Sequence record: MT884006.2
DNA from: Escherichia phage vb_EcoM_bov9_1
Strand: one strand, 5' to 3'
DNA length: 64,000 bases
Shown: piece by piece, positions 1,886-16,397 of the stretch
How positions within the stretch are numbered: position 1 is the stretch's first letter
How the letters are laid out: the number at the start of each line of letters is the position of its first letter
Made by a program: the position numbers and the translations under genes
Notes under the pieces: generated by a model
Told to the model about the DNA's origin: nothing
The model's database searches: none
The model's input: only the letters and a program-made list of their open reading frames with translations

Positions 1886-2377
1886 ATGTTTGTAGATGAT
1901 GTAACACGAGCGTTTGAATCTGGTGATTTTGCTCGACCTAACTTATTCCAAGTAGAAATTTCTTATCTTGGACAAAATTTTACGTTCCAATGTAAAGCCA
2001 CTGCTTTACCAGCTGGTATTGTAGAAAAAATTCCAGTCGGATTTATGAACCGTAAAATTAACGTGGCAGGCGATCGTACATTCGATGACTGGACTGTTAC
2101 AGTAATGAACGATGAAGCTCATGATGCTCGCCAGAAGTTTGTTGATTGGCAAAGCATTGCCGCAGGACAAGGAAACGAAATTACTGGTGGAAAACCTGCA
2201 GAGTATAAAAAGAGCGCTATTGTTCGTCAATATGCTCGTGATGCTAAAACAGTAACAAAAGAAATTGAAATTAAAGGTCTGTGGCCTACTAACGTGGGTG
2301 AACTTCAATTAGATTGGGATTCAAACAATGAAATCCAAACCTTTGAAGTAACTCTTGCTCTCGATTATTGGGAATAA
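1886..2377 (+). CDS. 19: Tail tube protein gp19 (163 aa)
   Basis: 163 aa, same length as T4 gp19; synteny 18-19-20; preceded by late promoter motifs. Confidence 0.9.
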   Translation: MFVDDVTRAFESGDFARPNLFQVEISYLGQNFTFQCKATALPAGIVEKIPVGFMNRKINVAGDRTFDDWTVTVMNDEAHDARQKFVDWQSIAAGQGNEITGGKPAEYKKSAIVRQYARDAKTVTKEIEIKGLWPTNVGELQLDWDSNNEIQTFEVTLALDYWE

Positions 2378-2382
2378 AATGA

Positions 2383-2400
2383 ATGGGGAGAAATCCCCAT
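2383..2400 (+). terminator. Hairpin after gene 19 (ATGGGGA-GAAA-TCCCCAT)
   Basis: 7-bp stem with GAAA tetraloop. Confidence 0.45.
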
Positions 2401-2409
2401 CCTGCTTAA

Positions 2410-4034
<1,625 letters not shown>

Positions 4035-5367: not shown

Positions 5368-6177
5368 ATGCTTAAAGAACAACTGATTGCCGAAGCGCAG
5401 AAAATTGATGCTTCCGTTGCTCTTGATAGTATTTTCGAATCAGTTAATATTTCTCCGGAAGCAAAAGAAACTTTCGGCACTGTATTCGAAGCTACCGTCA
5501 AGCAGCACGCCGTTAAATTAGCTGAATCTCATATCGCTAAAATTGCTGAAAAAGCAGAAGAAGAAGTAGAAAAAAATAAAGAAGAAGCAGAAGAAAAAGC
5601 TGAGAAGAAAATCGCTGAGCAAGCTTCTAAATTCCTTGACCATCTTGCAAAAGAATGGCTCACTGAAAATAAATTAGCAGTAGATAAAGGTATCAAAGCC
5701 GAACTGTTTGAATCCATGCTTGGTGGATTGAAAGAGCTCTTCGTTGAACACAACGTTGTTGTTCCAGAAGAATCAGTTGATGTTGTAGCTGAAATGGAAG
5801 AAGAGCTGCAAGAACATAAAGAAGAATCAGCTCGTCTGTTCGAAGAACTCAATAAGCGTGACGCATATATCAATTATGTGCAGCGTGAAGTGGCATTGAG
5901 CGAAAGTACTAAAGATCTGACTGAGTCTCAAAAAGAAAAAGTCTCTGCTCTGGTCGAAGGTATGGATTATTCAGATGCATTCTCAAGTAAATTGAGTGCA
6001 ATCGTAGAAATGGTGAAGAAGTCTAATAAAGATGAAAGCACTATTGCTGAGGGTATAAATACTCCTGATACTGAAGCAGCCGGACTAAATTTCGTCACTG
6101 AAGCTGTAGAAGATAAATCTGCACAAGGTGCAGAAGATATTGTAAGTGTATATGCGAAAGTCGCATCTCGTTTCTAA
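5368..6177 (+). CDS. 22: Major prohead scaffolding core protein gp22 (269 aa)
   Basis: 269 aa, acidic coiled-coil-like composition; immediately upstream of gp23. Confidence 0.9.
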   Translation: MLKEQLIAEAQKIDASVALDSIFESVNISPEAKETFGTVFEATVKQHAVKLAESHIAKIAEKAEEEVEKNKEEAEEKAEKKIAEQASKFLDHLAKEWLTENKLAVDKGIKAELFESMLGGLKELFVEHNVVVPEESVDVVAEMEEELQEHKEESARLFEELNKRDAYINYVQREVALSESTKDLTESQKEKVSALVEGMDYSDAFSSKLSAIVEMVKKSNKDESTIAEGINTPDTEAAGLNFVTEAVEDKSAQGAEDIVSVYAKVASRF

Positions 6178-11884: not shown

Positions 11885-12565
11885 TTATTTTAATGTTACG
11901 AAAGAAGAATTGCGTGTTTCACGAATTAAAACTGATCCATCACGATTAATGTAATAAATTAAGCTAAATAAAGTTTGGTGTGCTGACGCGTGCTCAAAAC
12001 TTGTTGGGTGAGATTTCCAATCCGGAGTTTCAGCAATCCATTGATAAATCCACCAAGGAACAGTGCAGAATCCTGGATTTTTTCCAATCAACTGAAGATT
12101 CGGACTAAAGTTTTCCGGAAGAGTAAATACAGACGGCCTTTCAGATTCAATAATCTCAGCTACAGCCTGTTCGAATTTTTCTTCAACAAAAGGAGTATCT
12201 TCAATCAAAACATCGGTATTTTCAGGAATTTTATCCGTTTCTACTACTTCAATTTTAATGTCAGATTTAACCGGAGAATCAATCAGAAGTGCTGCTTCTG
12301 GATTGACTTCTTCATCGTCATATTTTAACCCCTCTGCAGCATCAGCAGCATCAATTAAGTCTTTAATAGATAACCCATCAGTCTCCGGCATAGGTTCACT
12401 AGCGAGCTTCTGGAGGGCTTCTTCAATATCAACAACGATATTATCAAAAGATTTATTCTTTTTGACCTTTATACCAAACTGTTCAGCATATTCAGCTAAT
12501 TTAGCTTTAGCTTCTTTATTATCATCAAGAGCCTTCAGCTCTGCAATATAATCTTTATCTATCAT
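11885..12565 (-). CDS. inh: Inh, inhibitor of prohead protease (226 aa)
   Basis: 226 aa as T4 Inh; position between hoc and uvsW. Confidence 0.7.
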   Translation of the reverse strand: MIDKDYIAELKALDDNKEAKAKLAEYAEQFGIKVKKNKSFDNIVVDIEEALQKLASEPMPETDGLSIKDLIDAADAAEGLKYDDEEVNPEAALLIDSPVKSDIKIEVVETDKIPENTDVLIEDTPFVEEKFEQAVAEIIESERPSVFTLPENFSPNLQLIGKNPGFCTVPWWIYQWIAETPDWKSHPTSFEHASAHQTLFSLIYYINRDGSVLIRETRNSSFVTLK

Positions 12566-12578
12566 AATATTTCCTCAG

Positions 12579-12586
12579 TATAAATA
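12579..12586 (+). promoter_or_regulatory. Late promoter motif TATAAATA for uvsW
   Basis: Exact consensus 30 nt upstream of uvsW ATG. Confidence 0.55.
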
Positions 12587-12615
12587 TAGATATATTTATT
12601 ACATGGTATTTAGAC

Positions 12616-14127
12616 ATGACTGACATTAAAGTACATTTTTATGATTTTAGTCACGTGAGAATTGATTGTGAAGAAAGTACATTTCATGAACTCCGTGATT
12701 TCTTTAGCTTTGAAGCTGATGGGTATCGTTTTAATCCGAAATACAAATATGGCCACTGGGATGGACGAATCCGTCTTTTAGATTATAATCGTCTTCTTCC
12801 ATTCGGCTTAGTCGGGCAAATTAAAAAGTTCTGTGATAATTTTGGCTATAAAGCCTGGATTGACCCGCAAATTAACGAAAAAGAAGAATTATCAAGAAAA
12901 GATTTTGATGAATGGCTTTCTAAATTAGAAATCTATTCAGGAAATAAAAGAATTGAACCGCACTGGTATCAAAAAGATGCAGTGTTCGAAGGATTAGTTA
13001 ATCGTCGTAGAATTCTTAATCTTCCAACATCTGCAGGTAAATCTTTAATTCAAGCTTTGCTTGCGCGATATTATTTGGAAAATTATGAAGGTAAAATTCT
13101 TATCATTGTTCCAACAACTGCTCTGACAACTCAGATGGCTGATGACTTTGTTGATTATCGTTTATTCAGTCATGCAATGATAAAGAAAATCGGTGGCGGA
13201 GCATCAAAAGATGATAAATATAAAAATGATGCACCAGTCGTCGTTGGTACATGGCAAACTGTAGTTAAACAACCAAAAGAATGGTTCTCACAGTTTGGAA
13301 TGATGATGAATGATGAATGCCATCTTGCTACAGGAAAAAGTATTTCATCTATCATATCAGGTTTAAATAACTGTATGTTTAAATTTGGTCTATCTGGTTC
13401 ATTACGTGATGGCAAAGCCAATATCATGCAGTATGTTGGAATGTTTGGTGAAATATTTAAGCCAGTAACGACTTCTAAGTTAATGGAAGATGGACAAGTA
13501 ACTGAGCTAAAAATTAATAGTATTTTTCTTCGCTATCCCGATGAGTTCACTACTAAATTAAAGGGAAAAACTTATCAAGAAGAAATAAAAATTATTACTG
13601 GGCTTAGTAAAAGAAATAAATGGATCGCTAAATTAGCTATTAAGCTTGCGCAAAAAGATGAAAACGCTTTTGTCATGTTTAAACATGTATCACATGGTAA
13701 AGCTATTTTCGATTTAATTAAAAATGAATACGATAAAGTTTATTACGTATCAGGGGAAGTTGATACCGAAACCCGCAATATAATGAAAACCTTAGCTGAA
13801 AATGGTAAAGGAATAATTATAGTAGCTAGTTATGGTGTATTTTCTACTGGTATTTCAGTTAAAAATCTGCATCACGTTGTTTTAGCGCACGGTGTTAAAT
13901 CAAAAATCATTGTATTACAAACAATCGGTCGTGTATTACGTAAGCATGGTTCTAAGACAATAGCAACCGTCTGGGACCTCATAGATGATTGTGGCGTTAA
14001 GCCAAAATCTGCTAATACGAAAAAGAAATATGTTCATTTGAACTATCTTTTAAAACACGGCATTGATCGTATTCAGCGCTACGCAGATGAAAAATTTAAT
14101 TACGTAATGAAAACAGTTAATTTATAA
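12616..14127 (+). CDS. uvsW: UvsW SF2 DNA/RNA helicase (503 aa)
   Basis: Walker A LPTSAGKS, DECH box NDECH; 503 aa; late promoter upstream. Confidence 0.9.
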   Translation: MTDIKVHFYDFSHVRIDCEESTFHELRDFFSFEADGYRFNPKYKYGHWDGRIRLLDYNRLLPFGLVGQIKKFCDNFGYKAWIDPQINEKEELSRKDFDEWLSKLEIYSGNKRIEPHWYQKDAVFEGLVNRRRILNLPTSAGKSLIQALLARYYLENYEGKILIIVPTTALTTQMADDFVDYRLFSHAMIKKIGGGASKDDKYKNDAPVVVGTWQTVVKQPKEWFSQFGMMMNDECHLATGKSISSIISGLNNCMFKFGLSGSLRDGKANIMQYVGMFGEIFKPVTTSKLMEDGQVTELKINSIFLRYPDEFTTKLKGKTYQEEIKIITGLSKRNKWIAKLAIKLAQKDENAFVMFKHVSHGKAIFDLIKNEYDKVYYVSGEVDTETRNIMKTLAENGKGIIIVASYGVFSTGISVKNLHHVVLAHGVKSKIIVLQTIGRVLRKHGSKTIATVWDLIDDCGVKPKSANTKKKYVHLNYLLKHGIDRIQRYADEKFNYVMKTVNL

Positions 14128-14152: not shown

Positions 14153-14383
14153 ATGTTACTAGAATTTAAACAATTTCTTTATGAAGCTTCTATTGATGAA
14201 TTTATGGGTAAAATTGCCTCTTGTCAAACATTAGAAGGTTTAGAAGAACTTGAAGCTTATTATAAGAAAAGAGTTAAAGAAACTGAATTAAAAGATACTG
14301 ATGACATCTCTGTGAGAGATGCTTTGGCAGGAAAAAGAGCTGAATTAGAAGATTCAGATGATGAAGTAGAAGAAAGCTTTTAA
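14153..14383 (+). CDS. UvsW.1 small protein (76 aa)
   Basis: ORF track starts at TTG 14141; ATG at 14153 with GGAG 7 nt upstream gives 76 aa MLLEFKQ... Confidence 0.6.
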   Translation: MLLEFKQFLYEASIDEFMGKIASCQTLEGLEELEAYYKKRVKETELKDTDDISVRDALAGKRAELEDSDDEVEESF

Positions 14384-14438
14384 ATTAAAAAAGGCCCAAC
14401 CAAAAAGGAAGGGCCAAAACTATAGACTAAAGGTCACA

Positions 14439-14606
14439 CTATAGCAAAAGTTGTGTTTCATTTAATTGTTCTTCCGAACTTTCTGAAACTGGTAGTTCTT
14501 TAATGTAATTATAGCAAGGCCCAGGATGTACAGGACCTTTGTCTGTTTCAACAACCAATGCAGAATCGATTGGAGTTTTACAGACAACACAAATCTTATC
14601 TGACAT
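14439..14606 (-). CDS. Small Cys-rich ORF, 55 aa (MSDKICVVCKTPIDS...), below ORF-track cutoff
   Basis: Hand-translated; own late-type promoter TATAAATA about 26 nt upstream (14632-14639); CxxC plus downstream Cys suggests metal binding; T4 uvsY.-2 position. Confidence 0.4.
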   Translation of the reverse strand: MSDKICVVCKTPIDSALVVETDKGPVHPGPCYNYIKELPVSESSEEQLNETQLLL

Positions 14607-14631
14607 GATTGTCTCCTCTGAATTATATATC

Positions 14632-14639
14632 TATTTATA
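14632..14639 (-). promoter_or_regulatory. Late promoter motif (minus strand TATAAATA) upstream of small Cys-rich ORF
   Basis: Plus-strand TATTTATA 26 nt upstream of ATG 14606. Confidence 0.5.
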
Positions 14640-14859
14640 CAACTCTCATATGCATATCAATGCCCATATCTTTAGAATAAAAATATTCATCAAGATATCC
14701 AGCAAATTTTCCTTTAATATAAAGGACATCTTCACCACACGGGTGGTCGGCCAGGATACGAATATCCTGACGCTTAAGATTATACTTTTTCATTAAGAAT
14801 TGAATCTCAGTTTCAAATTCTTCTTCATAATTAAAAGCATCATCAATGCTATATCTCAT
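14635..14859 (-). CDS. Hypothetical protein (T4 uvsY.-1 position)
   Basis: 74 aa ORF directly downstream of uvsY, start codon overlaps uvsY stop. Confidence 0.55.
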   Translation of the reverse strand: MRYSIDDAFNYEEEFETEIQFLMKKYNLKRQDIRILADHPCGEDVLYIKGKFAGYLDEYFYSKDMGIDMHMRVV

Positions 14860-15272
14860 TATTTTCCAGCCTCAAATGCTCGCATGTCTTGAATGTGCTT
14901 AATAGCAAATCCACGTGATTTAATAGCATCAAGAGCTCCGCTACAGAAATCTAATAAAATCCCCCAATACTGTAACGAGGTATCAACCTTTAAAACATCC
15001 TTATCAGCTGATAGAACTGTCTTCATTTCTGATTTCTCGTAACGATCCATACTAAATTCATCACCATCTCCTCGTCCCGAGTAGTAGTCTAATTTAGCTT
15101 TAAGAGCAACTTTCTTTTGCGCGTCAATTCTAAGCATTTCCTTTTTAATACTTGAATGCTTATTAAGCCATTTACTATATAACATCACATTATTAGCTGC
15201 TTCATACTGTAATTTAGTCGAATCTATAAACACATCTTTCTTCAATTCTTCTTGAAGATCTTCTAATCTCAT
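14859..15272 (-). CDS. uvsY: UvsY recombination mediator (137 aa)
   Basis: 137 aa matches T4 UvsY; MotA-box middle promoter upstream. Confidence 0.9.
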   Translation of the reverse strand: MRLEDLQEELKKDVFIDSTKLQYEAANNVMLYSKWLNKHSSIKKEMLRIDAQKKVALKAKLDYYSGRGDGDEFSMDRYEKSEMKTVLSADKDVLKVDTSLQYWGILLDFCSGALDAIKSRGFAIKHIQDMRAFEAGK

Positions 15273-15311: not shown

Positions 15312-15342
15312 CATTATACCACGTTTTAACGTGAAGCATTAT
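15312..15342 (-). promoter_or_regulatory. Middle promoter candidate for uvsY (MotA box TGCTT plus TATAAT)
   Basis: Minus strand reads ATAATGCTTCA...13 nt...TATAAT, leader about 35 nt to uvsY ATG. Confidence 0.5.
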
Positions 15343-16385: not shown

Positions 16386-16393
16386 TATTTATA
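16386..16393 (-). promoter_or_regulatory. Late promoter (minus strand TATAAATA) for genes 26-25
   Basis: Plus-strand TATTTATA 23 nt upstream of gene 26 start. Confidence 0.55.
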
Positions 16394-16397
16394 AATA
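16390..16397 (+). promoter_or_regulatory. Late promoter TATAAATA for gene 51
   Basis: Exact consensus 18 nt upstream of gene 51 ATG; overlaps the opposite-strand late motif by 4 nt. Confidence 0.6.

Follow-up and report, generated by a model that had tools for sequence, protein, structure and literature searches.

The 55-aa open reading frame (ORF) at 14439..14606 on the minus strand of Escherichia phage vb_EcoM_bov9_1 (record MT884006.2; positions refer to the 64,000-nucleotide stretch that we analysed, hereafter the window) is the long-annotated T4 gene uvsY.-2. It is a conserved and translated gene for a 6.1 kDa protein and not a new gene. A preliminary description made from the sequence alone had presented it as an unannotated, Cys-rich ORF with its own late promoter. 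The value as a discovery is small, given that the T4 reference annotation already includes the gene, a Pfam family covers its product, and mass spectrometry (MS) detection and a knockdown phenotype have been published. Still, uvsY.-2 is one of the few function-unassigned T4 genes that are conserved on many host genera and measurably important for infection. As a whole, we find it reasonably probable that its product is an adaptor with a zinc-stabilised CCHC head and a docking tail, expressed by middle read-through and from a late promoter of its own.

Results

The ORF listing of the window contains an ATG-initiated frame of 55 codons plus a TAG stop (14441..14439), and its translation, MSDKICVVCKTPIDSALVVETDKGPVHPGPCYNYIKELPVSESSEEQLNETQLLL, is exactly the one given in the preliminary description. 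The protein is 100% identical over 55 aa to T4 UvsY.-2 (T4p185; NP_049797.1 / AAD42525.1; UniProt Q00778), and the T4 reference records annotate the ORF as uvsY.-2 at 114496..114663 on the minus strand, flanked by uvsY.-1 and the convergent uvsW. Position, orientation and the flanking promoter and terminator are the same in the two phages, and while the proteins do not differ at all, the window DNA has a 2-nt (AT) insertion relative to T4 between the late box and the Shine-Dalgarno sequence. The protein matches Pfam family DUF2685 (PF10886) over its full length (E=9e-35, 119 bits against a curated cut-off of 25), with residues 3-55 aligned on profile positions 1-55 of 55, and is also a full-length match to phrog_1043 (E=3.9e-31). 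Searches of NCBIfam, PADLOC and Rfam gave no match.

The source phage belongs to Tequatrovirus. A 601-base stretch around the ORF matches Escherichia phage vB_EcoM_G10400 at 100% identity and hundreds of T4-like phages at 95-99%, and nearly all annotated relatives carry a uvsY.-2 CDS, so the ORF cannot be called unannotated. Other records name the product in SwissProt style, as ‘uncharacterized 6.1 kDa protein in uvsW-uvsY intergenic region’. A minority of records lack the CDS, GiZh (KT184311) and vB_KpnM_GF being examples; in the GiZh record, a bare gap extends from uvsY.-1 to the annotated terminator.

Spurious ORFs of similar size are numerous in the same region, and the length of this one alone is not above chance. 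A frame opened by chance in AT-rich DNA, or a region that acts as RNA or DNA and not as protein, would therefore be a natural reading of an ORF so short, and a single TATAAATA upstream could likewise be chance. What lifts uvsY.-2 above chance is conservation, since neither ORF length nor the box alone suffices. By tblastn, uvsY.-2 is present in 1,257 phage records, which range from Escherichia, Klebsiella and Salmonella phages to T4-like phages of Acinetobacter, Aeromonas and Vibrio. The sequences from an exhaustive profile search form 65 clusters at 50% identity; almost all are 51-66 aa long and match end to end. We attribute the odd lengths of P0001, P0019, P0025 and P0027 to artefacts of gene calling, frameshifts or read-through, and regard P0069 and P0085 as spurious repeat matches. 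Comparison with a Dhakavirus (dS 0.79) gives a dN/dS ratio of 0.13, and comparison with a Klebsiella phage (dS 1.47) one of 0.12, the latter near synonymous saturation. At greater distances synonymous sites are saturated and the protein is retained, with amino-acid-level conservation reaching down to ~35% identity and with invariant Cys, His and Glu. Across the 12 lineages compared, the uvsY.-2 frame is the sole frame open in all, and no Rfam family that would point to an RNA element matches the region.

Published data on the identical T4 protein agree with this. A time-resolved multi-omics study of T4 places uvsY.-2 (Q00778) in the class ‘middle-RNA_late-Protein’, which implies that mass spectrometry detected the protein and that it is a late-appearing one (PMC9697503). 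In a dCas13d CRISPRi-ART screen in T4, the gene was classed as ‘Semi-Fit’, with three guides at ~2.1-2.3, a gene score of 1.12 and a pooled-screen KS p-value of 0.12 (PMC11879866). Single-guide knockdown gave an efficiency of plating (EOP) of ~5e9 versus 1e10 for the control and smaller plaques, and complementation in trans restored both EOP and plaque size (PMC11879866). The knockdown phenotype is mild (PMC11879866). Hence, uvsY.-2 is a genuine protein-coding gene under purifying selection, and the chance or non-protein reading is refuted. The preliminary description had proposed to look for the reading frame and its Cys positions in T-even genomes and for the protein by MS in late-infected cells: frame and Cys positions are indeed kept across T4-like genomes, and MS detection has already been published for the identical T4 protein.

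The preliminary description had placed the ORF between uvsW.1 and uvsY, which is imprecise because uvsY.-1 intervenes between the ORF and uvsY. The transcription unit begins with uvsY (137 aa, recombination mediator; 14859..15272, minus strand), followed by uvsY.-1 (74 aa; 14635..14859, minus strand; phrog_1541; T4p186), the gene directly upstream of uvsY.-2. On the other side lies the convergent uvsW.1 (76 aa from its ATG; 14153..14383, plus strand; Pfam UvsW-1). The uvsY/oriF middle promoter occupies 15338..15313 on the minus strand, with a MotA box TGCTTCA at 15338..15332, a 13-nt spacer and a -10 element TATAAT at 15318..15313. T4 carries an identical MotA box upstream of uvsY, and oriF has a MotA-dependent promoter (PMC3016281). 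Neither a terminator scanner nor reading of the sequence found a terminator between this promoter and uvsY.-2, and read-through from it would explain the ‘middle’ RNA class of the gene.

The unit ends at an intrinsic terminator on the minus strand (14415..14387), made of a hairpin at 14415..14393 and a T6 run at 14392..14387, which lies in the 55-nt gap common to uvsY.-2 and uvsW.1. Direct folding gives a GGCCC..GGGCC stem with an internal loop and a dG of -14.8 kcal/mol. The consensus terminator scanner missed this element because of the internal loop and the 5-nt loop within a split stem. The GiZh annotation lists the identical element as a rho-independent terminator, and a GC hairpin with a T-run is kept downstream of uvsY.-2 in most lineages.

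Gene order around uvsY.-2 is strongly conserved on the downstream side, where uvsW or uvsW.1 lies on the opposite strand in 29 of 29 loci. Upstream, uvsY adjoins uvsY.-2 in 21/29 loci and uvsY.-1 in two (L013 and L019). The gene always sits in the gap between uvsY or gp25 and uvsW; in 44RR, avDM10 and Acinetobacter phages, uvsY is elsewhere and genes 26 and 25 immediately precede uvsY.-2. This synteny is compatible with a link between UvsY.-2 and UvsW, but it counts for little, as T4-like core regions keep their gene order throughout.

The minus-strand sequence upstream of the uvsY.-2 ATG is gagagttgTATAAATAgatatataattcaGAGGAGacaatcATG. It contains a late-promoter box, the perfect 8-mer TATAAATA (-13 to -6), at 14639..14632 on the minus strand. 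Counted from its last A (14632), the box stands 26 nt ahead of the first base of the ATG (14606), with 25 nt in between, which is where the preliminary description had seen it. In T4, the late promoter consensus TATAAATA spans -13 to -6 and is gp55-, gp33- and gp45-dependent (PMC2988020). The box at uvsY.-2 overlaps the TAA stop of uvsY.-1 (14637..14635) and is followed directly by the AT-rich stretch gatatataatt; T4 late promoters do without a -35 element. From the geometry of the box, transcription is predicted to start at the A at 14626 (close to 114,681 in T4 coordinates), leaving a 20-nt leader. A strong Shine-Dalgarno sequence, GAGGAG (14618..14613, minus strand), stands 6 nt before the ATG, and a similar element occurs in most orthologous loci.

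The window holds 18 copies of TATAAATA versus 8.9 +/- 2.9 in shuffles (~2-fold enrichment). Eleven of the 18 sit 14-34 nt before the ATG of an ORF on the same strand, including the copy at uvsY.-2 (25 nt), and boxes are similarly placed upstream of uvsW, gene 26 and gene 51. Among distinct uvsY.-2 lineages, 13 of 26 have [T/A]ATAAATA at -23 to -37, against a chance expectation of ~1% per locus as estimated from the shuffle frequency. Seven of these 13 boxes are perfect and six have A(-13), the commonest natural variant of the late promoter (9/50 listed T4 sites; PMC2988020). In several box-bearing lineages, the sequence around the box is not alignable. No late box was found upstream of the gene in the other 13 lineages, which comprise Aeromonas, Vibrio, Krischvirus and Providencia/Morganella-type phages and some Acinetobacter phages; there, the gene abuts or overlaps the upstream gene.

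In its perfect 8-mer, AT-rich downstream sequence and ~20 nt leader the uvsY.-2 box is like T4 late promoters, but it is atypical in that it overlaps the preceding stop codon and belongs to an operon with a middle promoter further upstream. At uvsY.-2, the T4 GenBank records list no promoter. Judging from these signals, we infer that the late promoter is active. The claim of an ‘own late promoter’ thus holds in part: the box has T4 late-promoter geometry and recurs in half of the lineages, but it is absent from the other half and the gene has another likely transcript source upstream.

Codons 1-37 (14496..14606, minus strand) encode a predicted single-zinc CCHC head, as suggested by conserved ligands and an AF2 model. 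The candidate ligand codons are C6 (14591..14589), C9 (14582..14580), H27 (14528..14526) and C31 (14516..14514), all on the minus strand. In a 70-sequence alignment, C6 and C9 are each present in 69/70 sequences, the single exception being a frameshift-like artefact, and C31 is present in all 70. H27 is kept in 67/70, and two of the three exceptions are His-to-Cys, the swap expected of a metal ligand. K10, G24, V26 and G29 are nearly invariant in the same alignment. The pattern C-x2-C-x15-20-[H/C]-x3-C occurs in all 57 clean representatives, two of them with the His-to-Cys swap. From the CxxC and a distal Cys, the preliminary description had proposed a small zinc-binding module; those three residues (C6, C9 and C31) are there and the module is likely, but the fourth ligand, His27, had been overlooked. 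Taking alignment and model together, a zinc site at C6, C9, H27 and C31 is quite probable.

The AF2 model, built from a 57-sequence alignment, has a pLDDT of 83-90 over residues 1-40. Short strands flank the CxxC knuckle, a hairpin (19-21/24-26) ends at H27, and a helix spans residues 30-37 with C31 at its start. Foldseek found no significant neighbour in the PDB with either of two models (best E 0.37); the best local superpositions, none of them significant, are all on single-zinc modules, namely LIM half-fingers (rmsd 1.7 A over 29 columns, probability 0.94), L24e/Rlp24, RING and GATA. In BFVD, the significant matches are uncharacterised family members only, followed by weak matches to the zinc proteins RING, gamma-b and TRASH. 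A profile search of PDB sequences gave one borderline match, running from the knuckle to the His, to the C-terminal zinc finger of VPS39 (E=0.0017). That finger has predicted ligands C841, C844, H863 and C866, its crystal structure is a non-native fold, and it is discussed in the context of protein-protein assembly (PMC7384125). Pfam zinc-finger families gave no match to UvsY.-2 at E<=1. A single-sequence search for solved structures was set aside, as it turned up nothing beyond lysostaphin repeats, a low-complexity artefact, and weak Mlc matches.

LIM half-fingers, VPS39/Pcf11 and L24e/Rlp24 resemble UvsY.-2 in ligand order and spacing (C-x2-C, ~17 residues, H/C-x2-3-C) and in topology, with a knuckle, a β-hairpin and a short helix. 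In contrast to these families, UvsY.-2 is a stand-alone 55-aa phage protein with one zinc site, where LIM has two, and its acidic tail is found in none of them. The resemblance is probably analogous, or else too remote to call.

Codons 38-55 (14442..14495, minus strand) encode an acidic tail that is predicted to be disordered (AF2 pLDDT 56-69). It contains an invariant Glu, E42 (14483..14481; 70/70 sequences), within a hydrophobic-x-E-S motif and, after a linker of variable length, the C-terminal motif L48-x-E50-(T/V)-(Q/E)-L53-L54-hydrophobic55, in which L48 is kept in 52, E50 in 54, L53 in 61 and L54 in 59 of the 70 sequences. Averaged over 57 representatives, the head carries a net charge of -1.7 and the tail one of -3.8, and an acidic character throughout makes binding to protein more likely than binding to nucleic acid.

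Docking by C-terminal tails has precedents in T4. The C-termini of gp43, gp55 and gp33 bind the clamp (PMC2988020), and gp32 requires its acidic C-terminal tail to contact UvsW, gp59 and gp41 (PMC10391720). In UvsY.-2, as in these proteins, a folded domain is followed by a disordered linker of variable length and an extreme C-terminus that is both acidic and hydrophobic. Its tail motif differs from those of both gp32 and gp43/gp55/gp33, and it may work in a similar way as a member of neither class. The clamp-binding tails (gp43 ASLDFLFG, gp55 PSLDFLYEAND, gp33 NTLDFLL) have (S/T)LDFL(F/Y/L) in common, and on direct comparison UvsY.-2 LNETQLLL has no L-D-F-L core, which led us to reject membership of this motif class. 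Mimicry of the gp32 tail was rejected as well: gp32 DLDDLLNDL scores 3/7 on the UvsY.-2 tail profile, with only acidity and Leu content in common. When the window and 16 kb of T4 (80 kb in total) were scanned with the tail profile, no other ORF of at least 40 aa matched. Hence, the motif comparisons and the scan point to no partner. We consider the chances that the tail serves docking about evenly balanced, and any specific partner is doubtful at best. By analogy with tail docking elsewhere in T4, and given the constant place of the gene beside uvsW/uvsW.1 and uvsY, our leading guess would be a late replication, recombination or transcription protein.

Discussion

The signals described here, together with the published expression classes, suggest a scheme in which uvsY.-2 would be transcribed as the last gene of the uvsY / uvsY.-1 / uvsY.-2 unit by read-through from the MotA-dependent uvsY/oriF promoter. 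T-even-like lineages would gain extra transcription from the gp55-type late promoter TATAAATA, and all transcripts would end at the hairpin and T6 that also serve the convergent uvsW.1. Invariant ligands, ligand-preserving substitutions and the predicted fold argue for residues 1-37 folding around one Zn2+ (Cys6, Cys9, His27 and Cys31) as a CCHC finger of the knuckle / β-hairpin / helix type. Residues 38-55 would stay disordered, with Glu42 and the C-terminal motif together serving as the short linear motif that docks on a partner, itself conserved across T4-like phages.

Three other readings are less well supported than this zinc head with a docking tail. Many phage inhibitors are small and acidic and combine a folded head with a disordered tail, which is also how UvsY.-2 looks, and it could be an anti-defence or host-takeover protein that blocks host immunity or a housekeeping protein, the knockdown cost then reflecting the defences of the screening strain. 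Such genes are typically accessory, fast-evolving and early-expressed, whereas uvsY.-2 is found at the same syntenic place in all lineages examined, with hosts ranging from E. coli to Vibrio, Aeromonas and Acinetobacter, and is under strong purifying selection with a nearly invariant tail motif. The authors of the CRISPRi-ART screen do suggest that function-unassigned Fit and Semi-Fit genes, uvsY.-2 among them, may inhibit host defence (PMC11879866), but the protein appears late (PMC9697503). The absence of a PADLOC match says nothing here, as that library is made of defence and not counter-defence proteins. On the other evidence we regard an anti-defence role as unlikely.

Late expression would fit a morphogenesis factor, that is, a small chaperone or minor component of the baseplate or tail made late with genes 25, 26 and 51. 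The late-type promoter, the place right after genes 26 and 25 in the phages that have uvsY elsewhere (44RR, avDM10 and Acinetobacter phages), the small plaques on knockdown (PMC11879866) and a late protein class that includes 57A, 57B, gp2, gp11, gp34, gp35 and gp37 (PMC9697503) all point this way. The papers cited here do not name UvsY.-2 as a virion or assembly protein, and the adjacency to genes 25/26 is conserved no better than that to uvsW. To our knowledge, the known T4 assembly chaperones do not typically have an acidic disordered tail with a docking motif at its end, and we find a morphogenesis role quite improbable. Some single-zinc folds bind DNA or RNA, GATA and L24e/Rlp24 are among the weak structural matches, and the gene adjoins oriF and the R-loop helicase gene uvsW, all of which could suggest a nucleic-acid-binding zinc-finger regulator, for example at oriF R-loops or on late mRNAs. 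The negative mean charge of both head and tail leaves no basic surface for such binding, and among local matches LIM half-fingers and the VPS39 finger rank first, the latter tied to protein-protein assembly (PMC7384125), which makes a regulator of this kind very unlikely.

The adaptor with a zinc head and a docking tail could be taken one step further, to a family-wide accessory factor of late T4 DNA metabolism that docks by its tail on a core protein, for instance the UvsW helicase or some other component of replication, recombination or late transcription. This extension is speculative and we give it only a small chance. If true, UvsY.-2 would modulate recombination-dependent replication or the way it is coupled to late gene expression, and the small-plaque knockdown phenotype would be explained. 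Four candidate metal ligands, the invariant Glu42, the eight-residue C-terminal motif and the predicted late transcription start are the experimental handles on the gene.

Relative to T4 (locus L003), the window has two inserted nucleotides (AT) in the stretch that separates the late box of uvsY.-2 from its Shine-Dalgarno sequence (14621..14631, minus strand), and the distance from box to ATG, counted with the first T as start, is 33 nt in the window versus 31 nt in T4. Two further perfect late boxes, TATAAATA, lie on opposite strands between baseplate genes 26 and 51, which are divergently oriented, one at 16386..16393 on the minus strand, 22 nt before gene 26, and the other at 16390..16397 on the plus strand, 17 nt before gene 51. 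The two boxes share 4 nt, and together (16386..16397) they make up a compact back-to-back pair of predicted late promoters.

In two orthologous loci of one lineage (L031 and L032, about 5770..6150), the complete UvsY.-2 module, with its internal Met kept, is in frame with an N-terminal domain of approximately 70 aa in an uninterrupted ORF of 123–126 aa (family protein P0030; phrog_26998). This domain stands where uvsY.-1 would be, has no detectable similarity to uvsY.-1 and finds no match in NCBIfam. The ORF could be a true fusion or two coupled genes without a stop between them. Aeromonas phages 44RR and avDM10 and Vibrio phages have, directly upstream of or near uvsY.-2, a gene whose GatB/YqeY-like product bears the annotation ‘tRNA amidotransferase’ (loci L004 and L010, about 2004..2483; L005, 1913..2326); in T-evens this position is filled by uvsY.-1.

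UvsW (503 aa, 12616..14127) and UvsW.1 (76 aa, 14153..14383) are encoded by two separate plus-strand ORFs in the window, in contrast to the RefSeq and GenBank records of T4, which give a single fused uvsW of 587 aa and 1,764 nt (L003, 678..2441). The fused entry bears a note on sequence discrepancies. In several relatives, UvsW.1 is labelled ‘DNA helicase’; the Vibrio and Acinetobacter loci yielded no detectable homologue of UvsW.1. Vibrio phage vB_ValM_R10Z (MT612988) encodes a full-length UvsW homologue with 54% identity by tblastn (L005, 2822..4336, minus strand), a stretch over which its public record has no gene entered.

On the other side of uvsW, a gap of approximately 50 nt (12566..12615), containing a late box at 12579..12586, separates it from inh (11885..12565, minus strand). 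In T4 (NC_000866), these two genes flank the homing-endonuclease gene segE (112057..112674), which the window lacks. The relatives STML-198, Roth77 and Lazarus have other homing endonucleases close to uvsW.

Some database host labels look doubtful. ‘Pseudomonas phage vB_PSGBLB0006’ (142 kb) and ‘Serratia phage PhiZZ30’ are each 99% identical to T4-type coliphages in this region. A partial DUF2685 protein (P0003) is filed under Enterococcus faecalis, where it is probably contamination.
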